39,577 nt of DNA from Escherichia phage vB_EcoP_IMEP24: the sequence record MZ648215.1; one strand, given 5' to 3'. Shown in pieces: positions 1 to 39,577 of this stretch. Each line of letters opens with the position of its first letter. Positions within the stretch are counted from its first letter, which is position 1. Both the position numbers and the translations under genes were made by a program. A model generated the notes under the pieces. That model worked only from the letters and a program-made list of their open reading frames with translations. It ran no database searches and was not told the origin of the DNA.

Positions 1-184
1 TCTCACACTTCAAGAACCTCAAGTCTCCCCCATAGGCCCTCTTTCAGTCCAGACCAAGGGTGGCCCACCTCCAGTCTATCATAGGGTTGGACCGGCTGTC
101 AATATCTCAAGTCAACGATTGGTCATGACTATCGGTGGTGGTGGTGACGATAGGTTGGGACTATTGGTCTGTCTCTGAGTCTTT
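1..184. repeat. Left direct terminal repeat (184 bp), identical to 39394..39577
   Basis: First 184 nt of the window recur exactly at the last 184 nt; T7-like genomes carry direct terminal repeats of this size class. Confidence 0.9.
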
Positions 185-199
185 ATCTGTATAACCATA

Positions 200-279
200 A
201 GTCCAACAACCTACAGTCCAACAACCTACAGTCCAACAACCTACAGTCCAACAACCTACAGTCCAACAACCTACAGTCA
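200..279. repeat. Tandem array, 5 perfect copies of 15-bp unit AGTCCAACAACCTAC, just inside left terminal repeat
   Basis: Read directly: agtccaacaacctac x5 then partial copy; CCTACAGT motif recurs at 302-322 and near right end. Confidence 0.9.
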
Positions 280-577
280 CAGACCATCGGTAAAGCCATT
301 ACCTACAGTCAGAGACCTACAGTTAATAGACACAAAGATATAGACTTAAGGTCAAAGACATGTTAGTCAAAGACTATATCATCTTAGTCACTATGGGGCC
401 GACGATAGCTTAATCAATATTATTTCAAATTAACTATTGACTACAGGTCTCGATTATGGCTTAATAGCTTCCGTCAACACGACACGGCAACAACCGGATA
501 GTGAAGACGCCGGGTCATCCCGGTCAAGTAGACAGCCTGATAAGTCATACGAAAAACAGGCAGATGACAGAAAGTAG

Positions 578-607
578 TTGACAAGCAGTAACGACTTAAA
601 GTAGTAT
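578..607 (+). promoter_or_regulatory. Host sigma70-type early promoter (A1-like)
   Basis: TTGACA 578-583, 18-nt spacer, TAGTAT 602-607; lies in early leader where T7 has A1-A3. Confidence 0.5.
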
Positions 608-725
608 GTACCACGTAGCAAGATGGCGTAGGGATAGGAACCGAGAAACCTGCCCGAGACCAGCCAAGGATAAGGCACTAGCTGTGAGTCGAATTCGGTC
701 ACTCACCGCATAAAAGAATAACAGG

Positions 726-754
726 TTGACAGCCTCCTTTAAAAGCTGTAAGAT
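726..754 (+). promoter_or_regulatory. Host sigma70-type early promoter (A2/A3-like)
   Basis: TTGACA 726-731, 17-nt spacer, TAAGAT 749-754; near-consensus -35 and good -10. Confidence 0.6.
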
Positions 755-932
755 GTACCACACTGAAACGACAGTGAGTCCCAACACTGAAACGGGATAG
801 CACGGCGACGACAGCCAACGCGAATGCTCTTTAACAATCTGGATAAACTCTTAATGTGCGCCGATAGCGACTAACTACAGGGTCTTTGAGTCTACATCTG
901 AAGGCCCTGACTGATAGTCACTAACTTAACGG

Positions 933-1187
933 ATGGACACTATGAAACACTTAAGCACAATCACTAATCACAATGAAATATTCGTGAACACTAAAGGTTA
1001 TGCGTGGATTCAGCTTAAAGAGATGACAGGAGCGCGTCACCGTGTGGTAGTGCGCAAGGTCTCAAGCAAGCCGTTCAGTAACTACAGTGTAGATACTGTG
1101 CGTATAGACAACGAGACCTACCTGATAGACTCGCAGATAACCGTGAGTCCTACAGCGAGCGCCTCAGCTCCTTATTTCGCTAACTGA
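933..1187 (+). CDS. Hypothetical early protein (84 aa)
   Basis: ORF in early region upstream of Ocr-like gene; no recognised similarity; weak SD so start uncertain. Confidence 0.45.
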   Translation: MDTMKHLSTITNHNEIFVNTKGYAWIQLKEMTGARHRVVVRKVSSKPFSNYSVDTVRIDNETYLIDSQITVSPTASASAPYFAN

Positions 1188-1274
1188 GAGTGATTAACTA
1201 CAGGTCGTTAGACTCATAGCGGCCTGACTGATAGTCACTAACACACACACGATTAACTTTGAGAGGATATAACT

Positions 1275-1835
1275 ATGGAACGTAACGCTAACGCATACTA
1301 TGAGCTGCTGGCTGCAACCGTTAAAGCATTTAACGAGCGTATTCAGTACGACGAAATAGCTGAAGGCGATGACTACAGCGATGCGCTACATGAGGTCGTA
1401 GACGGTATGGTTCCGCACTATTACCACGAGATTTTCACGGTGATGGCTGCTGATGGTATAGACCACGAGTTTGAGGACTCTGGGCTGATGCCTGATACCA
1501 AAGACGTAACGCGTATACTGCAAGCTCGCATCTATGAGGCGCTTTATAACGACGTGTCTGATAGCTCGGATGTGGTATGGTTTGAGGCTGAAGAGAGCGA
1601 CGAAGAGGATGAATATTGGGTAGTTGACGCTAAAACAGGACTAATCATTGCGCAAGCTGTACCACTTAAAGACGCTATTGCGGTAAGTCGCAGTCCCTCT
1701 AAGGTAATAACAGGGGACACATACCACCTTGCAGGAAAGGACTTCAAGTCCAAAGACGAGGCGATACGCTATGCGGTTGAGCTTGCTGGCGGTCTTACTG
1801 TGACCAAGATGACAACCATCGCGGTGGAAGTGTAG
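1275..1835 (+). CDS. ocr: Ocr-like anti-restriction DNA mimic (T7 gene 0.3 homolog) with ~70-aa C-terminal extension
   Basis: N-terminal ~115 aa match T7 Ocr ([43 protein letters not shown], acidic stretch [11 protein letters not shown]); RBS gagagga upstream; 186 aa vs 117 aa in T7. Confidence 0.85.
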
Positions 1836-1908
1836 GAGTGATAGACGAGAGGTCATCTAACTGATAGGTGGCCTCAAAGATTACCACTTAAATTGATAGG
1901 AGTTAACT

Positions 1909-1998
1909 ATGAACGTCGGTTACTGGGTGTGCTTATCTCCGGTCATCTTTCTGATAGCTTGGGGCCTTCTGGACGCAATCAAGCGAGGGTCATTCTAA
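1909..1998 (+). CDS. Small hydrophobic peptide (29 aa), early gene
   Basis: ATG 6 nt after AGGAG (1898-1902); MNVGYWVCLSPVIFLIAWGLLDAIKRGSF; stop overlaps next ATG (TAATG). Confidence 0.4.
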   Translation: MNVGYWVCLSPVIFLIAWGLLDAIKRGSF

Positions 1999-2195
1999 TG
2001 AGCTGGATACTTCTGGTTATCTTAGGTTATGGACTTATCACCTACGTGCTGGTGAGAGACATCAACAAAGCGCGTAAAGTCTACAAATTCAACTATGTAC
2101 GTCTGGGTCGCTGGACTGTAAGACAACCTAATGGACGATTCACACGAAACCTCGCGAACGTCTGGGATATAGCAACTCTTGGGAGCAAACTGTAA
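1998..2195 (+). CDS. Small membrane protein (65 aa), early gene
   Basis: ATG coupled to upstream stop; hydrophobic segment WILLVILGYGLITYVLV; preferred over the TTG start at 1893 in the ORF track, which lacks an RBS. Confidence 0.45.
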   Translation: MSWILLVILGYGLITYVLVRDINKARKVYKFNYVRLGRWTVRQPNGRFTRNLANVWDIATLGSKL

Positions 2196-2521
2196 TGAAC
2201 AAGTCATACGGGATTAATCTGGTACACTCTATGGACGCAGAAATGAACATGTTAAGCCTACTGGCTACCGGGTATCGTCACGGGACGTCAAGTCACACCG
2301 CACGTCAACAACAGGAGCGCGACCGTGTACTTCAGGCACGACTCCGGGCCGAGGGCCATAAGTCTGAGCTGATGTGTCTGGCGTATGGTGGGCGACCAAT
2401 CACCGACGATGGTAAACTTCTGGTCTCAGGCTGGAAGGCGATAGACCAACGGTCAACCATCAAGCACACGACTCATGGTGACTTCAGTCATCTTCACGCT
2501 AACCCTCTGATATGCAAGTAA
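2195..2521 (+). CDS. Hypothetical early protein (108 aa)
   Basis: ORF with stop-start overlap (TAATGA) in the slot where T7 has genes 0.5-0.7; no kinase motifs. Confidence 0.5.
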   Translation: MNKSYGINLVHSMDAEMNMLSLLATGYRHGTSSHTARQQQERDRVLQARLRAEGHKSELMCLAYGGRPITDDGKLLVSGWKAIDQRSTIKHTTHGDFSHLHANPLICK

Positions 2522-2526
2522 TTCTG

Positions 2527-2549
2527 ACTTAACTATCACTATAGGACTC
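2527..2549 (+). promoter_or_regulatory. Phage RNAP promoter (class II type) upstream of RNAP gene
   Basis: cttaactatcactatagga, +1 G at 2544; matches the 12-member consensus in this genome. Confidence 0.7.
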
Positions 2550-2618
2550 AAGGTCTAAGACTCCAAGTGAAAGACCAAAGAGACTTTAAGTGAAAGACTA
2601 ATAACAAGGACTTTAAGT

Positions 2619-5300
2619 ATGAGCGTCATCTCTATTGACAAACACGACTTCTCTGATGTGTCGAACGCCATTGAGCCGTTTAACCTGCTGGCTGACCACT
2701 ATGGGCAAGACCTTGCAGTCAAGCAGCTTCAGCTTGAGCATGAGGCATACACTGAAGGTGAGCGACGTTTCATTAAGAACCTTGAGCGCCAGACCGAGCG
2801 CGGGGAACTGGCAGACAATCAGGTCGCTAAACCTCTGATGCAAACGCTGGTTCCGACCATCGCTAAGGCTTTCCGTGAGTGGCATGAAGGCCCGGAAGGT
2901 AAGTCATCGACCTCGCGTCCAAGCGTAGCGTTTACCATGCTGAGCACTGACGAGAAGGCTGTAAAAGACCGCTCTCTGCTAATCTCTGCGGAGTCTGCTG
3001 CGGTTATCATACTGAAGGTCATCCTCTCCAAGCTGGTCAAGCCTGAAGGGATACCGATAACTCCTATGGCATCCGCGATAGGTCGCACACTGGAAGATGA
3101 AATCCGCTTTGGTCGCATACGTGAGCAGGAGCAGGAGCACTTCAAGAAGACCATAGCGGAGAACCTGAAGAAACGCGCTGGCGCAAGCTACAAGAAAGCC
3201 TACATGCAGGCAGTCGAGGCGTCTATGCTTGAGCAGGGGCAACTGGCTGACGCTTGGGGGACTTGGAGTCCTACCGAGGCGGTACACGTTGGCATCAAGA
3301 TGCTTGAGATTGTCATCCAGTCCACACAACTGGTCGAGCTTAAGCGTTATGGTGCTGGCAATGCGGCGGCTGACGTTGAGATGGTCCACCTGTCAGACTT
3401 CTGGGTCAAGAAGATGGCACAACGTGGATTCAGCCTTGCGGGTATCGCACCAGTCTATCAACCTTGCGTCGTTCCACCTAAGCCGTGGACGGGTGTCGTA
3501 GGCGGTGGGTACTGGGCCAAAGGTCGCAGACCGTTACCATTGATTCGCTTAGGGTCTAAGTCTGCGGTAGCACGTTACGAAGACGTGTACATGCCTGAAG
3601 TCTATGACGCTGTGAACATCATTCAGAATACACCTTGGAAAGTTAACAAGAAGGTTCTGGACGTGGTGAACATGGTCGAGAAGCTGAACAACACGCCTAT
3701 TGATGACATCCCTCAAATGGAACCACTGAAGCCTGAGGACTATGCGGGTGAGACTGAAGAAGAACTCAAGGCATGGAAGAAAGCTGCTGCTGGTATCTAT
3801 CGCCGCGAGAAGGCCCGACAGTCACGCAGATTGTCGCTGAGTTTTATCGTCAGCCAAGCGAACAAGTTCTCGCAGTTTAAGGCTATCTGGTTCCCGTACA
3901 ACATGGATTGGCGCGGTCGCGTCTACGCTGTACCGATGTTCAACCCTCAGGGTAACGACATGCAGAAAGGTCTCCTGACTCTGGCAGTCGGAAAGCCTAT
4001 TGGCGCTGATGGTTTCAAATGGCTGAAGGTCCACGGTGCAAACTGTGCGGGTGTCGATAAAGTCACCTTCGAGGAGCGCATCAAGTGGGTGGAAGACAAC
4101 CACGACAACATCATGTCTACCGCTAAGGCCCCGATGGACAGCATTGAGTGGTGGGGTAAGTTAGACTCTCCTTTCTGCTTCCTAGCGTTCTGCTTCGAGT
4201 ATGCTGGCGTAATGCATCACGGCCTGTCTTACTCCTGCTCGTTGCCGATAGCGTTCGATGGGTCCTGCTCTGGGATTCAGCACTTCAGCGCGATGCTTCG
4301 TGACCACATCGGTGGACATGCAGTAAACCTGACGCCTTCCGGTAAGGTTCAAGACATCTACCGCATCGTGTCTGACCGCATTGAGGAGGAGCTTAAAGTC
4401 CTGCTGGTTAACGGTACGGACAACGAGATGGTCACTCACGAGGATAAGAAAACTGGTGAGATTACCGAACGTCTCAAGCTGGGGACACGAGAGCTGGCCC
4501 GGCAGTGGCTGACTTACGGTATGTCACGCAAGGTAACTAAGCGTTCGGTCATGACTCTGGCCTACGGGTCGAAAGAGTACGGATTCGCAGACCAAGTTTA
4601 CGAGGACATCGTGATGCCAGCGATTGACTCAGGGTCCGGCGCTATGTTCACTGAACCAAGCCAAGCGTCTCGCTTCATGGCTAAGATGATTTGGGAAGCT
4701 GTTAGTGTGACCGTAGTTGCTGCGGTTGACGCGATGAAGTGGCTTCAAGGTGCTGCCAAGCTGCTGGCTGCTGAAGTGAAGGACAAGAAGACTGGCGAAA
4801 TCCTGAAGCCATGTCTTCCGGTACACTGGGTCACACCTGATGGTTTCCCGGTCTGGCAGGAATACCGCAAGAAAGATACCACTCGTCTGAACCTGATGTT
4901 CTTAGGGTCATTCAACCTTCAGCCTACGGTCAACAAAGGCACGAAGAAAGAGCTGGACAAGCACAAGCAGGAGTCAGGCATTAGCCCGAACTTCGTCCAC
5001 TCACAAGATGGTAGCCACCTGCGCAAGACTGTAGTCCACACGCACCGCAAGTATGGCGTGATGTCGTTCGCAGTGATCCACGATAGCTTCGGGACCATCC
5101 CGGCTGACGCTGAGTATCTGTTCCGTGGCGTCCGTGAGACAATGGTTGAGACCTACCGCGACAACGATGTGCTGCTTGACTTCTACGAGCAGTTCGAATA
5201 CCAGCTTCACGAGAGTCAGCGCGATAAGCTGCCTGAGCTTCCGAAGAAAGGTAAACTGAATATCGAAGACATCCTGTCTTCAGACTTTGCATTCGCTTAA
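2619..5300 (+). CDS. Single-subunit DNA-directed RNA polymerase (T7 gene 1 homolog)
   Basis: 893 aa; near-collinear with T7 RNAP incl. KAIWFPYNMDWRGRVYAV, HGANCAGVDK, LPxAFDGSCSGIQHFSAMLRD, VHSQDGSHLRK, IHDSFGT, C-terminal FAFA. Confidence 0.98.
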   Translation: MSVISIDKHDFSDVSNAIEPFNLLADHYGQDLAVKQLQLEHEAYTEGERRFIKNLERQTERGELADNQVAKPLMQTLVPTIAKAFREWHEGPEGKSSTSRPSVAFTMLSTDEKAVKDRSLLISAESAAVIILKVILSKLVKPEGIPITPMASAIGRTLEDEIRFGRIREQEQEHFKKTIAENLKKRAGASYKKAYMQAVEASMLEQGQLADAWGTWSPTEAVHVGIKMLEIVIQSTQLVELKRYGAGNAAADVEMVHLSDFWVKKMAQRGFSLAGIAPVYQPCVVPPKPWTGVVGGGYWAKGRRPLPLIRLGSKSAVARYEDVYMPEVYDAVNIIQNTPWKVNKKVLDVVNMVEKLNNTPIDDIPQMEPLKPEDYAGETEEELKAWKKAAAGIYRREKARQSRRLSLSFIVSQANKFSQFKAIWFPYNMDWRGRVYAVPMFNPQGNDMQKGLLTLAVGKPIGADGFKWLKVHGANCAGVDKVTFEERIKWVEDNHDNIMSTAKAPMDSIEWWGKLDSPFCFLAFCFEYAGVMHHGLSYSCSLPIAFDGSCSGIQHFSAMLRDHIGGHAVNLTPSGKVQDIYRIVSDRIEEELKVLLVNGTDNEMVTHEDKKTGEITERLKLGTRELARQWLTYGMSRKVTKRSVMTLAYGSKEYGFADQVYEDIVMPAIDSGSGAMFTEPSQASRFMAKMIWEAVSVTVVAAVDAMKWLQGAAKLLAAEVKDKKTGEILKPCLPVHWVTPDGFPVWQEYRKKDTTRLNLMFLGSFNLQPTVNKGTKKELDKHKQESGISPNFVHSQDGSHLRKTVVHTHRKYGVMSFAVIHDSFGTIPADAEYLFRGVRETMVETYRDNDVLLDFYEQFEYQLHESQRDKLPELPKKGKLNIEDILSSDFAFA

Positions 5301-5312
5301 CAGGAGAGAGTT

Positions 5313-5513
5313 ATGAAATTTGCACACAAGCAGACTGGCGTTAATGGCGGGACTCAAATCGTGACTGTAACGGAGCACAACGGGAAGGGTCTGGTGAAGA
5401 CCACGGTCATTCCTACAGAAATGGCAAAGCAGCTTAACGTACCGTTCAAGTGGCTAGTTAAGTTGGTCGAGGAGCGTCACGAGGCAGAACTTAAAGAGGC
5501 AGCAACCAAATGA
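5313..5513 (+). CDS. Hypothetical protein (66 aa)
   Basis: ORF with RBS aggagag 6 nt upstream; sits between RNAP gene and gene 1.1. Confidence 0.5.
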   Translation: MKFAHKQTGVNGGTQIVTVTEHNGKGLVKTTVIPTEMAKQLNVPFKWLVKLVEERHEAELKEAATK

Positions 5514-5591
5514 CAGACCTACAGTTACTGGCCTTGTGGCTGGGAGCACTCGCAGTATTCACTTTAATCCAACGCAGAAGAGGTTAACCTT

Positions 5592-6065
5592 ATGTTCGGT
5601 AAGTCAAAACTTGAAGCACAAATCGAGGAGTTGAGCATGAAGGTGGTATGTTTGAAGCGAGCCGTAGAGGTCCGGGACAAGGACAACGAGCGGCTGAAGG
5701 ATAAGCTCGCTGAAGCCGAGCGTAAGCGCCTAACGCCACCAGCGGCTGTAACCCTCAAGCGTATGGTCGGCATCAAGTTCAAGGCGCTGTTCGATGGTAA
5801 GTATCAGCCCACTGAGTTCAAGATAGGTCTTGGCAAGTGTGGGAAGGTGGTCAACTACTTCGAGGTGACTAAGCGTGAAGACCGGACGCTTACCATTCAC
5901 CAGTATCACACAGACGGGTCGTCTAAGGACTTCGAGTACCGACTCGGAGACATCGACGGTCGCATCCAGTATGACTACGAGCTGATGCAAGTCTACGGCG
6001 AGGAGGCAGAACGTGAGCGAGCGATTCAGGCATTCATGCAAGTAAGACCTCGCATCGTCATCTAA
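5592..6065 (+). CDS. Hypothetical protein (157 aa), coiled-coil N-terminus
   Basis: ORF; stop TAA is embedded in the downstream phage promoter; no recognised similarity. Confidence 0.55.
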   Translation: MFGKSKLEAQIEELSMKVVCLKRAVEVRDKDNERLKDKLAEAERKRLTPPAAVTLKRMVGIKFKALFDGKYQPTEFKIGLGKCGKVVNYFEVTKREDRTLTIHQYHTDGSSKDFEYRLGDIDGRIQYDYELMQVYGEEAERERAIQAFMQVRPRIVI

Positions 6066-6083
6066 ACTATCACTATAGGATTA
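6061..6083 (+). promoter_or_regulatory. Phage RNAP promoter (phi1.1-like)
   Basis: tctaaactatcactatagga, +1 G at 6078. Confidence 0.8.
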
Positions 6084-6124
6084 GACTCAAGGTCATGACT
6101 CAAAGTCGTGGCCTTCATGATTAA
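6081..6124 (+). other. RNase III-type processing hairpin (R1.1-like)
   Basis: TTAGACTCAAGGTCAT..GTGGCCTTCATGATTAA; 10-bp stem with G.U wobbles; same element recurs at 13401 and 36152. Confidence 0.5.
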
Positions 6125-6154
6125 CCCTATAACCTAAACAACTGGAGCTACAAC

Positions 6155-6334
6155 ATGTATCAGAACACTATCAACTTCGAGCGCATCCGTGAACGTCAGC
6201 AGACTGAAGATTATATTCCGAAGGGACGCAAGCTGAACAAGACCAAGCGTGGTGGTGGTGTCAAGGGTGCTTTCCGTAACGCTGAAGGTAAAGACTCTCT
6301 GGTAAACCAAGAGAAATACTTCGTAGGAGCATAA
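6155..6334 (+). CDS. Gene 1.1-like protein (59 aa)
   Basis: Below the ORF track cutoff; RBS ggag; shares KGRKLNKTKR with T7 gp1.1. Confidence 0.65.
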   Translation: MYQNTINFERIRERQQTEDYIPKGRKLNKTKRGGGVKGAFRNAEGKDSLVNQEKYFVGA

Positions 6335-6338
6335 CGCT

Positions 6339-6602
6339 ATGGGCCGACTTTATAGTGGCAACCTAAACGCTTTCAAAGCAGCGTGTAACAGGCTCTATCA
6401 GTTAGACTTCTGCGTGATACAGAAGGATTGGTACGAGGCGCATCTTCGGAAAGAGTGCATGAGACTTCAAGTCGAGGACCGAGCTGGTAACATCTTCGCG
6501 CTTAAGACCTTCGCTCACCACGATGAAGACGTACTGTACAACACTGCAACAGGCTTCCTTAACTGCCTCGCTAACCAACTCGACACATGGAGAAAATCAT
6601 AA
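6339..6602 (+). CDS. Gene 1.2 protein (host dGTPase inhibitor homolog)
   Basis: MGRLYSGNLxAFKAA...HHDEDVL matches T7 gp1.2 along whole length; 87 aa. Confidence 0.85.
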   Translation: MGRLYSGNLNAFKAACNRLYQLDFCVIQKDWYEAHLRKECMRLQVEDRAGNIFALKTFAHHDEDVLYNTATGFLNCLANQLDTWRKS

Positions 6603-7663
6603 TGACTACGACTATTAAAACTAACCCGCACCGCGCTGTAGATTACTCTGAGTCTGGCGTTAAGAAGGCTCTGGAAGCTGCTGGGTCGCTGGAAGCTGAA
6701 GTGAAGTACGATGGTGTCCGGTTGAACCTTACGGTCTTCCCTACTGGTGAGACTCAATGGCTGAGCCGTGAGTCCAAAGAGCTTCCAGCACTTCAGCATC
6801 TGAAGTCAGAACATGGGAGTCCTACCGAATTAACAAACTGTGGAGACTGGCGCTGGTTCCTGAAGCAAGCAGGACATGAGGTCTCTGGCCTGATGATTGA
6901 CGGTGAGGTCATGGTCAAGGGTGTAGACTTCAATACGTCTTCAGGTCTCATCCGAACGAAGTGGTTGAAGCAAAAGAACTTTGAGTTTTCAACTGGTGAG
7001 CACTGGGGTAAGGACAGGAAGAAAGAGAAGCTACCATTCTGTCTGGACCAGAGGTTCATCAAAGTGGTCGTCTACGGGGTCATCGACCTTAACGTCATCA
7101 CCGACCCGACAGCCGAAGGTCCTATCCATAGCGTCACACGCCTGAAGGCCGAAGCTATCGTCCCTCTCCTCCAGAAATACTTCCCTGAAATCGACTGGGT
7201 TCTGTCTGAGTCACACACGGTCTATGACCTTGAGTCGCTCAACTCCCTGTACGAACAGAAGCGTCTGGAAGGACACGAGGGTCTGGTAGTCAAGGACCCG
7301 CTTGGTAAATACAAGCGTGGCAAGAAGTCTGGCATGTGGAAAATGAAGCCTGAGGAGACCATCGACGGGACCGTGTGTGGCCTAGTGTGGGGGACTCCGG
7401 GTAAGGCCAACGAAGGTAAGGTGATTGGCTTTGAGGTTCTGCTTGAGGATGGCATGGTGGTTAACGCCTGTGGTCTGACTGAAGAACAGAAGGACGAGTT
7501 CACACTAGCTGTTAAGACTCAGGAGCTAAACGGTGACAGCCACGCCTATGAAGGATGGCAGTGTGAGGTCCTATTCATGGAGAGGTTCCCTGATGGCTCC
7601 CTTCGTCACCCTAGCTTCAAGTGCTGGCGCGGGACGGAAGACAATCCAACCGTTAAGAGCTAA
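6602..7663 (+). CDS. ATP-dependent DNA ligase (T7 gene 1.3 homolog)
   Basis: KYDGVR adenylation motif, LMIDGEVMVKGVDFNTSSGL, EGHEGLVVKDP, KRGKKSGMWKMKPE, DGSLRHPSF; start placed at ATG 6602 (MTTTIKTNP matches T7 N-terminus), overlapping 1.2 stop. Confidence 0.93.
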   Translation: MTTTIKTNPHRAVDYSESGVKKALEAAGSLEAEVKYDGVRLNLTVFPTGETQWLSRESKELPALQHLKSEHGSPTELTNCGDWRWFLKQAGHEVSGLMIDGEVMVKGVDFNTSSGLIRTKWLKQKNFEFSTGEHWGKDRKKEKLPFCLDQRFIKVVVYGVIDLNVITDPTAEGPIHSVTRLKAEAIVPLLQKYFPEIDWVLSESHTVYDLESLNSLYEQKRLEGHEGLVVKDPLGKYKRGKKSGMWKMKPEETIDGTVCGLVWGTPGKANEGKVIGFEVLLEDGMVVNACGLTEEQKDEFTLAVKTQELNGDSHAYEGWQCEVLFMERFPDGSLRHPSFKCWRGTEDNPTVKS

Positions 7664-7672
7664 CTAAACGTC

Positions 7673-7710
7673 AACCCAGTGGTCTTCGGACTGCTGGGTT
7701 TCTTTGCTTT
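7673..7710 (+). terminator. Rho-independent terminator (early terminator TE equivalent)
   Basis: AACCCAG..CTGGGTT stem followed by TTCTTTGCTTT; located right after ligase as in T7. Confidence 0.65.
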
Positions 7711-7746
7711 GTGCTAACAAGCTATCGTTTGGGGTACCAGCCTGAC

Positions 7747-7769
7747 CCTAAGCTATCACTATAGGACAA
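7747..7769 (+). promoter_or_regulatory. Phage RNAP promoter
   Basis: cctaagctatcactatagga, +1 G at 7764 (one variant base at -13). Confidence 0.7.
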
Positions 7770-7797
7770 CCATAACTTCGACCTAAGGAGGCCGACC

Positions 7798-8058
7798 ATG
7801 TTTAAGAACTTAATGTTCAACCGTTATACCAGTACATTCCACCTGTCTCACAACCCGTTCGCTTGCATTAAGCGCAACGAGAAGCTGGGCTACTTCGGGA
7901 AGGCCGTTAAGCTGTCACCTACAGTCTTCGCTCTGATTACTCCGGGCAAAGTTGAAGAGGCCCGACAGAAGCGTGAGACCAACGTACCTGTGGTCTACAC
8001 CAAGTGGCCTCGCGTTCGTCTGTTCGTTGAGTTCGTGAAGGAGGTGGTCAATGACTAA
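7798..8058 (+). CDS. Gene 1.6-like protein
   Basis: RBS aggagg; pattern similarity to T7 gp1.6 (LSPTVFALITPG; KWPRVRLFVEFVKEV). Confidence 0.7.
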   Translation: MFKNLMFNRYTSTFHLSHNPFACIKRNEKLGYFGKAVKLSPTVFALITPGKVEEARQKRETNVPVVYTKWPRVRLFVEFVKEVVND

Positions 8059-10852: not shown

Positions 10853-10902
10853 GGACTATGAGTCCTGTCCCTTTGTTAGCATTTTTGATTAAGGAGTGAC
10901 CA

Positions 10903-11079
10903 ATGGATGGTGTGCCAAGACACATGAGGTATTACGTTGGTAATACTGGGAAGAACCGAAGGTCTAAACTCAAAGAGAGACTAAAGCGGGAAGTACCTGA
11001 TGCTAATCAACGCGCTGCTGTACTTGCTATTATGGAGGAATACGCCATTCTGTATCACCTAAAGTTTACTAAGGAGTGA
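10903..11079 (+). CDS. Hypothetical basic protein (58 aa)
   Basis: Below ORF cutoff; preceded by taaggagtgaccaATG, a 16-bp string repeated exactly at the gene 4 start. Confidence 0.5.
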   Translation: MDGVPRHMRYYVGNTGKNRRSKLKERLKREVPDANQRAAVLAIMEEYAILYHLKFTKE

Positions 11080-12783
<1,704 letters not shown>

Positions 12784-13386: not shown

Positions 13387-13403
13387 CTATCACTTTAGGA
13401 TAG
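13381..13403 (+). promoter_or_regulatory. Phage RNAP promoter, variant
   Basis: gcttaactatcactttagga; A to T at -3; +1 G at 13398. Confidence 0.55.
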
Positions 13404-13440
13404 ACTCAAGGTCATTCACACCGAGTGGCCTTTATGATTA
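13401..13440 (+). other. RNase III-type processing hairpin
   Basis: TAGACTCAAGGTCAT..GTGGCCTTTATGATTA; same box as 6081 and 36152. Confidence 0.5.
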
Positions 13441-13461
13441 GACTAAAGCGGAGGATTAACC

Positions 13462-15633
13462 ATGTTTGACCTTAAGGATATTTGGGGTTCGGACATCGAG
13501 ACCAACGGTCTCCTTGACACCGTGTCCCAGTTCCATTGTGGGGTCCTGATTAATGCCGAGTCGAATGAGACCCTTAAGTATGGGGTAGCGCCGATGGTCG
13601 GTATCATCGGTGGCTTCAAAGAGTATGTGCAGAAGGTGGAAGAGATTGCTGCAACGCCTACAGGTATGCTTGTCTTCCACAACGGTATCAACTATGACGT
13701 CCCTGCTATTGACAAGCTGAAACGTCTGTACTTTGGGAAACGCTTTAACTTCCCGAAACACAAGATGATTGATACCTTGGTGCTGGGCCGCTTGATGTAT
13801 CCCAACATTAAGTTCTCAGACATGGGAGCGGTGAAAGCTGGTCGTCTGCCACCTAATATGATGGGACGTCAGTCTCTTGAGGCTTGGGGTTATCGTCTCG
13901 GTGAGATGAAGGGTGAGTACAAACACGATTACGTTGCCAAGTGCAAGGCTGAAGGTATCGAATATAAGGCTGGGGACGAATGGTTGTTCCCGTCTCAGGA
14001 GATGCTGGACTATAACGTTCAAGACGTTGTGGTCACACTGGCGTTGTTCAAGAAGTTCCTGACTGACAAGTATTACTTCCAGTCTGAACAGTTCGCTTTC
14101 GAACAGATTTATGCGTTGCGTCTGGAACATGATGCTGCGTGGACCTGTGCGAAGATGGAACGTAACGGCTATCCGATGAACACCGAGATGGTCGAAGGCT
14201 TATATCGTGAACTCACCGTCAAACGTGCAGAGTTGCTGGACAAGCTGCGTTCGACTTTCGGTAGCTGGTATGCACCAAAGGGTGGCAAGGAGTTCTTCAG
14301 GCATCCACGGACAGGCAAGGACCTTCCGAAGTATCCACGAGTCGTGTATCCTAAGGTAGGGTCAGTATTCAAGAAGCCGAAGAACAAAGCTCAACGCTTA
14401 GGTCTGGAGCCTTGCGAGTTCGACTCACGAGACACGATGGAAGGAGCACCATTCACGCCAATCACTTACGTTGAGTTTAATCCGGGAAGCGGAGACCACT
14501 TAGCGAAAGTCTTGATGGAGCGTGGATGGGAGCCTGTAGACTTCACTGACACCGGGAAACCTGTAGTCGATGACGAGACGTTAGAACACGTTAAGTTACC
14601 AGACGAAGAGGCTCAGGCTTGCGTAGAGCTGGTCCGTGAGTATCTGGTAGTCCAGAAGCGCATCGGTCAGGCGGCTGAAGGTAAGAACGCATGGTTGAAA
14701 CTTGTAGGTCCAGACGGACGTATGCACGGTTCAATCAACCCATGCGGTGCAGTAACCGGACGTGCGACCCATAGTTCACCAAACATGGCTCAAGTCCCGG
14801 CTAACGGTGCTCCATATGGTGAGACCTGCCGCGGTGCTTTCGGTGCAGCGTGGAACAAGAAGGACGGCGAGCCAGACCCTTGGATTCAAGTGGGTGTGGA
14901 TGCCTCAGGTCTTGAGCTTCGTTGTCTGGGGAACCGAGCGGCCCCGTTTGATGGTGGAGCCTATGCGAAGACTGTGGTCGAAGGTGACATCCACTGGGCC
15001 AACGCAGTAAACGCTGGGTTAGCACCCAACGTCCCACGCGATAAGTCTAACCACGACCATGAGGCTTTCCGCAACAACGCTAAGACGTTCATCTATGCGT
15101 TCCTGTATGGTGCAGGGGCCGCTAAGATTGGACTGATAGTAGGAGGTGGTAAGAAGGAAGGTTCAGCTCTCATGAAGAAATTCATTGAGGGTACACCAGC
15201 CATCAAGGACCTCAGGGAAGCTGTGAGTAATACGTTAATCTCAGACTCTAAGTGGGTAGACGGAGAGAACATCGTCAAGTGGAAACGCCGTTGGTTGCGT
15301 GGACTTGATGGTCGCCGTATCCACATCCGGTCGCCACACTCAGCACTGAACGCCTTACTTCAAGGTGACGGTGCGGTAGTCTGTAAGCACTGGATTGTTG
15401 AGACTGAACGTATGCTCGAAGAGGCCGGGTATGTCCACGGCTGGGAAGGAGACTTTGCGTACATGGCATGGGTCCACGACGAATTGCAGATTGCAGCTCG
15501 GAACATGGAGATTGCCGAAGATATTCGCAGAATTGCTCAACTTGCTATGCGTAAGGTGGGTGAGTTCTATAACTTTAAATGTGTCCTTGATACCGAAGGT
15601 AAGATTGGACCAACGTGGAAGGAGTGTCACTAA
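13462..15633 (+). CDS. DNA polymerase (T7 gene 5)
   Basis: DIETNGLL exo motif, FHNGxxYDVPA, YNVQDVVVT, GSWYxPKGG, PNGAVTGRATH, DASGLELRCL, NAKTFIYxFLYGAG, YMAWVHDE; collinear with T7 gp5. Confidence 0.97.
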   Translation: MFDLKDIWGSDIETNGLLDTVSQFHCGVLINAESNETLKYGVAPMVGIIGGFKEYVQKVEEIAATPTGMLVFHNGINYDVPAIDKLKRLYFGKRFNFPKHKMIDTLVLGRLMYPNIKFSDMGAVKAGRLPPNMMGRQSLEAWGYRLGEMKGEYKHDYVAKCKAEGIEYKAGDEWLFPSQEMLDYNVQDVVVTLALFKKFLTDKYYFQSEQFAFEQIYALRLEHDAAWTCAKMERNGYPMNTEMVEGLYRELTVKRAELLDKLRSTFGSWYAPKGGKEFFRHPRTGKDLPKYPRVVYPKVGSVFKKPKNKAQRLGLEPCEFDSRDTMEGAPFTPITYVEFNPGSGDHLAKVLMERGWEPVDFTDTGKPVVDDETLEHVKLPDEEAQACVELVREYLVVQKRIGQAAEGKNAWLKLVGPDGRMHGSINPCGAVTGRATHSSPNMAQVPANGAPYGETCRGAFGAAWNKKDGEPDPWIQVGVDASGLELRCLGNRAAPFDGGAYAKTVVEGDIHWANAVNAGLAPNVPRDKSNHDHEAFRNNAKTFIYAFLYGAGAAKIGLIVGGGKKEGSALMKKFIEGTPAIKDLREAVSNTLISDSKWVDGENIVKWKRRWLRGLDGRRIHIRSPHSALNALLQGDGAVVCKHWIVETERMLEEAGYVHGWEGDFAYMAWVHDELQIAARNMEIAEDIRRIAQLAMRKVGEFYNFKCVLDTEGKIGPTWKECH

Positions 15634-35693: not shown

Positions 35694-35888
35694 ATGATTG
35701 AGTTAGACTTCAAGAATGAGGTCCTTAAAGCCTCTCCTATCGTCGGGACCGCTGCGGCTGATGGTGCCAGTCGGTTCTTCTTCGGACTTACACTGAACGA
35801 ATGGTTCTACGTTGCAGCTATCGCGTACACCGTTGTCCAGATTGGTGTGCTAGTCTACAAAACGATTAAAGGAGGTGGTAAAACATGA
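35694..35888 (+). CDS. Class II holin (T7 gene 17.5)
   Basis: LDFxNExxKAxPIVGT, FFGLxLNEWFYVAAIAYTVVQIG matches T7 gp17.5; RBS ggagg. Confidence 0.92.
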   Translation: MIELDFKNEVLKASPIVGTAAADGASRFFFGLTLNEWFYVAAIAYTVVQIGVLVYKTIKGGGKT

Positions 35889-36148
35889 CGCAGATGGACT
35901 TAGAGAAGTTCCTCTTAATGCTAGATACTGAACGTGCTCGACTCATGCTGCAAGACCTGCGGGATGACACTAAGCGTTCACCTCAGCTCTACAACGCCAT
36001 TGAGAAGCTACTTGCTCGTCACAACTTTGTGTTAAGCAAGGTGTCTGTGGACGAGAAGACGCTGGCTGATATGGAGGCCCTGAACGCAGAGTACGATAAG
36101 GTGCTTTCAGCGACTGAGGATAATGACACCGGGTATGGCGTTCAATAA
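35885..36148 (+). CDS. Terminase small subunit (T7 gene 18)
   Basis: FLxMLDT, RRSPQLYNAIxKLLxRH match T7 gp18; ATG overlaps holin stop. Confidence 0.85.
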   Translation: MTQMDLEKFLLMLDTERARLMLQDLRDDTKRSPQLYNAIEKLLARHNFVLSKVSVDEKTLADMEALNAEYDKVLSATEDNDTGYGVQ

Positions 36149-36151
36149 GTG

Positions 36152-36190
36152 TTAGACTCAAGGTCATCGTCAGGTGGCCTTTATGATTAA
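36152..36190 (+). other. RNase III-type processing hairpin (R18.5-like)
   Basis: TTAGACTCAAGGTCAT..GGTGGCCTTTATGATTAA; third copy of the box. Confidence 0.5.
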
Positions 36191-36204
36191 CATTAGGAGG
36201 GTTT

Positions 36205-36480
36205 ATGACTAAGATAATGGAACGCAGAGCTGCCTATTATAAGCAGGTATACAAGGTGGACTTACAGACTCTAATTGGTATTCTAAAAGAGCAGGGAGGC
36301 TATGAGATATGTGGAAAGAGTATCTCTTTTGAAGGTGCAAAGGTAACAGCTCGCGTGGACCACTGCCACTCTACTGGAGCTATACGTGGTATTATATGCA
36401 ATAGGTGTAATCAGGCACTTGGTATGTTTGGAGATAACGTAGAGGGCATCTACAAGCTCTTAGCATACCTAGGCAAATAG
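36205..36480 (+). CDS. Endonuclease VII-like HNH nuclease (91 aa)
   Basis: DHCHSTGAIRGIICNRCNQALGMFGDN is the His-Me finger motif of the T4 endo VII family (DHDH..G.VRGLLC..CN..G); RBS taggaggg. Confidence 0.75.
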   Translation: MTKIMERRAAYYKQVYKVDLQTLIGILKEQGGYEICGKSISFEGAKVTARVDHCHSTGAIRGIICNRCNQALGMFGDNVEGIYKLLAYLGK

Positions 36481-39393: not shown

Positions 39394-39577
39394 TCTCACA
39401 CTTCAAGAACCTCAAGTCTCCCCCATAGGCCCTCTTTCAGTCCAGACCAAGGGTGGCCCACCTCCAGTCTATCATAGGGTTGGACCGGCTGTCAATATCT
39501 CAAGTCAACGATTGGTCATGACTATCGGTGGTGGTGGTGACGATAGGTTGGGACTATTGGTCTGTCTCTGAGTCTTT
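39394..39577. repeat. Right direct terminal repeat (184 bp)
   Basis: Identical to 1..184. Confidence 0.9.

Follow-up and report, generated by a model that had tools for sequence, protein, structure and literature searches.

Why should a phage of the T7 family carry the same short box twice in its early region, once before each of its first two early genes, and does this duplication belong to the DNA or to the RNA transcribed from it? The question is raised by the left end of Escherichia phage vB_EcoP_IMEP24 (record MZ648215.1), whose 39,577 nt were analysed as a whole and are referred to here as the window. The window is a complete K1F-like (Kayfunavirus) genome of the T7 family. It carries a direct terminal repeat of 184 bp (1-184 = 39394-39577), which identifies it as a complete linear genome, and the segment 700-1400 is 92-97% identical to the Kayfunavirus phages BDX03P1, Peacock and K1F. 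The left end is laid out as in T7, with host-type promoters followed by small early genes, ocr and the gene for the phage RNA polymerase:

~437, + strand: A1-type TTGACT, a host-type early promoter
578-607 and 726-754, + strand: A2-type and A3-type host promoters (sigma-70 scan, 10/12 matches each; layout as in T7/T3)
942-1187, + strand: gp0.2, 81 aa from ATG 942 (phrog_10124, function not assigned), carried by the cassette between hairpins 1 and 2
1275-1835, + strand: ocr-like anti-restriction gene, 186 aa (Pfam PF08684, E 1.6e-31, residues 8-96; phrog_2568)
2619-5300: phage RNA polymerase gene
2532, 6066, 17437, 20258, 21245, 25794, 33073 and 38800: the eight phage promoter cores, A(A/C)T(A/T)TCACTATAGG

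Two further features of this end were observed. Just inside the left terminal repeat, positions 193-293 hold a tandem array of about five units of 15 bp (CCAACAACCTACAGT register), and related ACCTACAGTC words occur at 269-285 and 301-317. Moreover, a full phage-promoter core, TTAACTATCACTATAGG, is found at 2526-2548, about 70 nt 5' of the phage RNA polymerase gene, a position that would let the polymerase transcribe its own gene.

The original prediction placed a duplicated box of about 50 bp at 870-925 and 1193-1242, before an 84-aa ORF and before ocr, and the sequence agrees with it to within 2 nt. Copy 1 begins with TAACTACAGGGTC at 872 and copy 2 with TAACTACAGGTC at 1195, and both end in CTAAC, at 921-925 and 1238-1242, respectively. 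The ORF following copy 1 runs mechanically from 933 to 1187, with the likely true start at the ATG that gives the 81 aa of gp0.2, and copy 2 is followed by ocr. The 3' part of the boxes is an exact repeat:

906-925 and 1223-1242, + strand: 20-nt repeat CCTGACTGATAGTCACTAAC, shared by copies 1 and 2

The 5' parts are likewise common to both copies, in the form (A/C)TTAACTACAGG(G)TC. By our own arithmetic, about 7e-4 occurrences of any repeated 20-mer would be expected by chance in 39.6 kb. With the terminal repeat and the left-end tandem array set aside, the repeated words of at least 16 nt in the genome comprise only this box, phage promoters, further hairpins of its family and a single ribosome-binding-site word. 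The 16-mer TAAGGAGTGACCAATG, a Shine-Dalgarno sequence with a start codon, is present twice, at 10890-10905 and 11070-11085, where it precedes two genes 180 bp apart.

With regard to structure, it had been proposed that AGGTC/GGCCT-type arms pair around a variable loop. The pairing is right but incomplete. In each box two helices are formed, a lower one of 8-9 bp and an upper one of 10-12 bp, with an asymmetric internal loop between them and a terminal loop on top, the latter being the part that differs between the copies. The common 20-mer takes in the 3' end of the upper stem and the 3' strand of the lower stem, together with the 3' internal loop and the predicted cut that lie between them. 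The minimum free energies are -22.9 kcal/mol for copy 1 and -23.3 kcal/mol for copy 2, with z scores against dinucleotide shuffles of -3.7 and -5.1, and none of 200 shuffles of copy 2 was as stable. Structure prediction, which had been suggested as a check, therefore gives a stable two-stem fold in both boxes, and the three segments folded (865-930, 1188-1247 and 1835-1900) share the same architecture, with z between -3.6 and -5.1.

The hairpins start 1-2 nt past stop codons and end just 5' of the next ribosome-binding site. Stable, G+C-containing hairpins right after stop codons could also be intrinsic terminators or attenuators for the host RNA polymerase, which would set the amounts of gp0.2 transcript relative to ocr transcript. 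We give this reading almost no credence, since neither hairpin has a U-tract on its 3' side, where the flanks read CUAACUUAACGG and CUAACACACAC, and since phage-essential genes, including that of the RNA polymerase, lie downstream on the same early transcript. A scan of positions 1-3000 for intrinsic terminators finds none at the boxes (flanks CTAACTTAACGG and CTAACACACAC).

The boxes are very probably RNA elements, namely two of six RNase III processing hairpins of the T7 group in this K1F-like genome, a reading supported by homology, structure, covariation, strand and position. For T7 and T3, such elements were described in textbooks decades ago. The T7 sequences used for comparison are those that we take to be sites R0.3, R0.5, R1, R1.1 and R1.3. 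Three hairpins of the window, the two boxes and the one right after ocr, align with them column for column (alignment A1) around an invariant AGG...CCT core, and RNAalifold on the eight sequences yields an 18-pair consensus with compensatory changes at 11 pairs. Like those of the window, the T7 sites have two stems around an asymmetric internal loop, an AGG...CCU core and GAU directly 3' of the cut column; they also share strand and placement, past the A1-A3 promoters and between early genes. The T7 site closest to copy 1 is R0.3 (AGGGU...GCCCU), and the core ACAGGUC...GGCCUGA of T7 site R1 is the same in copy 2. There are differences as well. T7 has one site before ocr and the window has two, the second being accounted for by the extra gene gp0.2 between the two; the terminal loops are not alike, nor are the sequences of the distal stems; and no equivalent of sites R1 or R1.3 is detectable in the window, for which cleavage is a prediction.

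Given that the T7 records NC_001604 and V01146 list no RNase III features, T3 (AJ318471), in which ten stem-loops are annotated as 'RNase III recognition site', was taken as the annotated control. In the T3 annotation, R1.1 overlaps promoter phi1.1, R4.7 immediately precedes gene 5 and R18.5 immediately follows gene 18, placements by which the map positions correspond to those of sites in the window. A covariance model, R1, was built from alignment A1 (three window hairpins and five T7 sites) and run over the whole window with filters off; a second model, R2, was built from the sites of relatives only, with no window sequences. Model R1 finds six sites, all on the + strand, with the next matches at E of at least 1.4, and model R2 recovers the same six:

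865-923 (model match 861-929), + strand: hairpin 1, at the R0.3 position of T7/T3, 5' of gp0.2 (model R1 55.1 bits, model R2 68.2 bits, z -3.7); lower stem 865-873/915-923, upper stem 878-889/897-909, loop 890-896, 3' internal loop 910-912
1189-1239 (model match 1184-1247), + strand: hairpin 2, between gp0.2 and ocr, beginning 2 nt after the gp0.2 stop codon (model R1 60 bits, model R2 70 bits, z -5.1); lower stem 1189-1196/1232-1239, upper stem 1201-1210/1217-1226, loop 1211-1216, 3' internal loop 1227-1229
1836-1889 (model match 1832-1895), + strand: hairpin 3, at the R0.5 position, 1 nt after the ocr stop codon (model R1 56.7 bits, model R2 63.7 bits, z -3.6)
6072-6136, + strand: site at the R1.1 position, overlapping the phage promoter core 6066-6079, 5' of the gene 1.1/1.2 homologues (model R1 42.7 bits, E 5.5e-8; model R2 29.2 bits)
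13391-13447, + strand: site at the R4.7 position, directly 5' of the DNA polymerase gene (13462-15633), as in T3 (model R1 39.1 bits, E 4e-7; model R2 35.5 bits)
36143-36196, + strand: site at the R18.5 position, directly 3' of the gene 18 homologue (35885-36148) (model R1 48.9 bits, E 1.8e-9; model R2 40.6 bits)

The third hairpin and the three sites further along the genome were absent from the original prediction. All six fold as two helices with an asymmetric internal loop. The three window sequences used in training model R1 score 55-60 bits, and the other three lie outside its training set. In T3, which is also outside the training set, model R1 recovers 8 of the 10 annotated sites (R0.3, R0.5, R1, R1.1, R1.3, R4.7, R6.5 and R18.5) at E of 2.2e-6 or lower, with no other match at E <0.1, the next ones being at E 0.43 and 0.79. 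The window sites thus stand at the R0.3, R0.5, R1.1, R4.7 and R18.5 positions of T3, and the range of scores under the same model is alike, 39-60 bits in the window and 36-58 bits in T3. The two phages differ in the number of sites, ten annotated in T3 against six detectable here, and T3 is without a second site between R0.3 and gene 0.3.

At the R1 position of T7 and T3, 5' of gene 1, neither model has a match in the window; the segment 2520-2620 before gene 1 has no significant fold (z -1.0) and holds only the 5' half-motif ACTCAAGGTC and a phage promoter. The set of sites is therefore not identical to that of T7. A search with Rfam release 15 over positions 1-8000, at E up to 1, returned no match, and there is no curated family for T7-type RNase III sites. 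At the right end, too, a gene adjoins a hairpin: an ORF of 91 aa (36205-36480), with a CHSTGAIRGIICNRCN motif and the look of an HNH endonuclease, has been inserted after the R18.5-type hairpin and before the Rz-like gene 18.5 homologue.

The distribution of the sites also bears on a regulatory reading, according to which the shared sequence would be an operator for a phage or host protein, either a translational repressor or a DNA-binding regulator, that co-regulates gp0.2 and ocr. An identical 13-nt leader, GAUAGUCACUAAC, would indeed head both mRNAs. We know of no candidate regulator, the lower stem and the cut site account for the conserved part, and the same build recurs at 6072, 13391 and 36143, where it precedes middle and late genes that are unrelated, all of which makes such an operator exceedingly unlikely. 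Promoters for the phage RNA polymerase were considered too, and none of the eight cores falls at the two boxes.

The comparison with relatives reveals a second property of the RNase III-type hairpins. A scan of IMG/VR with the ocr protein returned 28 related loci, 29 with K1F, in which model R1 has 50 matches, several per locus and all on the + strand. In seven of the loci (L004, L005, L006, L009, L010, L011 and L014) a single hairpin stands directly before ocr, as in T7, and gp0.2 and one hairpin are missing together from L004, L005, L009, L010 and L011. The window, K1F and L013 have the order hairpin, gp0.2, hairpin. In L008 and L012 an unrelated 58-aa gene occupies the gp0.2 slot, and in L022, whose hairpins resemble those of T7 itself, a 94-aa gene does so; L007 has two cassettes in tandem, a 92-aa gene homologous to the 94-aa gene of L022 and gp0.2, with three hairpins. 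The slot between the same two boxes is held, in different genomes, by three unrelated gene families (phrog_10124, phrog_20418 and phrog_9817), to which no function is assigned.

The similarity between genomes ends exactly at the hairpin bases, on the left after CACTAAC and on the right before AGTGATTAAC. L009 corresponds to the window minus 317 bp (926-1242), with 417 identical columns out of 436 and 0 gaps, and the junction of this indel falls within the 20-mer. These breaks in similarity, together with the position of the junction, indicate that cassettes enter, leave or replace one another at the hairpins, for which homologous recombination between the conserved boxes is the simplest route.

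Some variants of this arrangement were observed. In L021 (874-1135) the first hairpin is followed by a 51-aa gene and then, with no further hairpin, by ocr, the genes being 28 nt apart, so that not every gene in the slot brings its own site. In L006 (817-909) and L014 (712-804) the terminal loop of the first hairpin is lengthened by an insertion of about 24 nt (…CTACCGCGAGACGGGCTTGACTTGAGCGACTGAAGG…), which is also present in the first sites of L027, L028, L016 and L017; the element is then 92-93 nt long and still scores 44 bits. The 186-aa ocr protein of the window looks chimeric. Its residues 1-120 match the ocr family, and its last 56 residues (131-186) share about 90% identity with the C-terminal end of another protein, of 115 aa, which forms a hairpin-bounded cassette of its own in L004 (1813-2157), L011, L027 and L028. 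In L011 the 115-aa gene is followed by the hairpin that stands after ocr in the window (1832-1895), with 61/64 nt identical, and a deletion may have fused ocr with the 115-aa gene.

Cassette boundaries of this kind could be read as DNA only. The boxes would then be mere scars or substrates of recombination, left by the insertion of the gp0.2 cassette and devoid of RNA function, in keeping with indel endpoints inside the common 20-mer and with the different genes swapped between the boxes. We hold this to be very improbable, and as a pure DNA-scar reading it is rejected on account of covariation, G.U pairs and strand bias. Covariation had been suggested as a check: across the 50 sites of relatives (alignment A2), both partners change in 13 of the 18 pairs (149 cells), and 94.4% of cells are standard pairs, counts that lean towards structure, since A2 was fitted to the model, and that do not represent independent events, since many of the relatives are close kin. 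None of 500 shuffles reaches the observed pairing values, and when the 3' partners are slid by 1-3 columns only 29-51% of cells are paired. Furthermore, each of the six window sites contains 2-4 G.U pairs, and in all six the sense RNA is more stable than the antisense RNA, by 2.8 to 13 kcal/mol. The 56 sites known from the window (6) and its relatives (50) are all on the transcribed strand. The G.U pairs, with the greater stability of the sense RNA, and the exclusive use of the + strand argue for a function in the transcript rather than in duplex DNA or in the opposite strand. A pure scar, moreover, would not retain two stems and an internal loop, nor would it account for single-copy sites of the same build at conserved positions in T7, T3 and the window.

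The fit to RNase III sites such as R0.3 and R0.5 of T7, put forward at first for position and architecture, is hence strengthened by the alignment, the models, the T3 control, covariation, position and strand. Internal loops in E. coli RNase III substrates limit cleavage to one phosphodiester, and the 3' hairpin that is left over protects the RNA from 3'-5' exonucleases (PMC1540722, PMC3867540). The T7 early precursor, of roughly 7000 nt, contains five such signals (PMC3867540). By analogy, transcription from the A1-A3-type promoters by the host RNA polymerase would produce a single polycistronic early transcript that includes the hairpins. Each box would form a hairpin of about 55 nt, whose coaxial helix would be bound by E. 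coli RNase III. Owing to the distortion of the target site by the internal loop, the enzyme would cut a single strand, on the 3' side of that loop.

The positions of the cuts were read off column 56 of alignment A1, the T7 cut column. The T7 cut coordinates used, 890, 1468, 3138, 5887 and 6448, are attributed to Dunn and Studier 1983, and all five fall on column 56, which supports their use. The cuts predicted for the two boxes are ...GGCCCUGACU^GAUAGUCAC at 912^913 and ...GGCCUGACU^GAUAGUCAC at 1229^1230, and those for the other sites are at 1878^1879, 6118^6119, 13435^13436 and 36184^36185. After cleavage, the upper stem-loop would stay on the upstream RNA and shield its 3' end from 3'-5' exonucleases. 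Both downstream mRNAs, those of gp0.2 and ocr, would begin with the common 13-nt leader irrespective of the promoter used, so that transcripts from the three early promoters would be trimmed to one 5' end and each small early gene would obtain its own stable message. In T7, processing at R0.3 also improves the translation of gene 0.3, and effects of cleavage on both mRNA stability and translation may be expected for the window too. The presence of two boxes would then follow from the extra gene: gp0.2 stands before ocr, and each gene unit would have its own site.

A related alternative keeps the RNA element and dispenses with the cut. The hairpins could bind RNase III, or act as structured barriers, without being cleaved, and thereby, independently of processing, shield the mRNA from exonucleases or mask and unmask the downstream ribosome-binding site. 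Variants of R1.1 that resist cleavage and yet bind the enzyme are known, and single base pairs by the scissile bond can uncouple binding from cleavage (PMC1540722). In addition, the upper stem is closed by a C-G pair in copies 1 and 2 and by an A-U pair in R0.3, R0.5 and R1.1 of T7. Nonetheless, the core ACAGGUC...GGCCUGA of copies 1 and 2 is that of T7 site R1, which we take to be a processed site, the internal loop and the GAU after the predicted cut are kept as in the T7 sites, and neither hairpin includes the ribosome-binding site of gp0.2 or ocr. We regard binding without cleavage as improbable and retain RNase III processing as the preferred reading. The literature searched yielded no paper linking RNase III with Kayfunavirus (or Autographiviridae) and no experimental cleavage data for any Kayfunavirus, and the K1F records DQ111067 and AM084414 carry no annotated RNase III site features.

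Being conserved, the hairpins would also act as homology patches for the gain, loss and exchange of early-gene cassettes between co-infecting relatives. It is conceivable, and we suggest it tentatively, that they double as standard connectors, through which small early genes are plugged in, removed or exchanged between co-infecting phages by homologous recombination; the near-identity of the 3' arms would then be due to selection for exchangeability or to gene conversion, and not only to recognition by RNase III. The closest parallel described so far is that of the PeSL motifs of T4-type phages, in which an early promoter and a stem-loop bound shuffled gene cassettes (PMC2839356, PMC4122927). 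In both cases short conserved regulatory hairpins flank small early genes lacking an assigned function and coincide with the endpoints of indels and replacements. The two systems differ in that the boxes are without promoter or terminator and appear to be RNA-processing signals, in that the phage family is not the same, and in that circular cassette intermediates have been proposed for PeSLs. Since the boxes contain no sigma-70 promoter or terminator, the resemblance is one of functional analogy, not of membership.

The box next to ocr is present in 115 phage records from several genera, where it falls, if annotated, under 'hypothetical protein' or under nothing. In the Kayfunavirus records, both of K1F included, the sites are unannotated or overrun by 'hypothetical proteins', and a covariance model such as R1 or R2 could be used to mark up RNase III sites in T7-like genomes at large. 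Phages of the K1F type are in use, and are being engineered, against K1 and uropathogenic E. coli. For such work the hairpins mark natural, tolerated insertion slots, and a payload placed between the boxes would be expected to be expressed as its own stable early mRNA. It has been reported that the palindromes of T7-type RNase III sites, as DNA hairpins, trigger DdmABC/Lamassu defence (PMC11707656), and the number of sites per phage may therefore carry a cost.

With regard to evolution, the extra R0.3-type site seems to have come with the extra early gene, and the cassette-boundary pattern is a modest addition to a known element, one through which the boxes would explain the turnover of small genes in the early region. 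If the hairpins do serve as connectors, a new gene, probably an anti-defence gene like ocr, would arrive together with the signal for a stable, separately translated mRNA.
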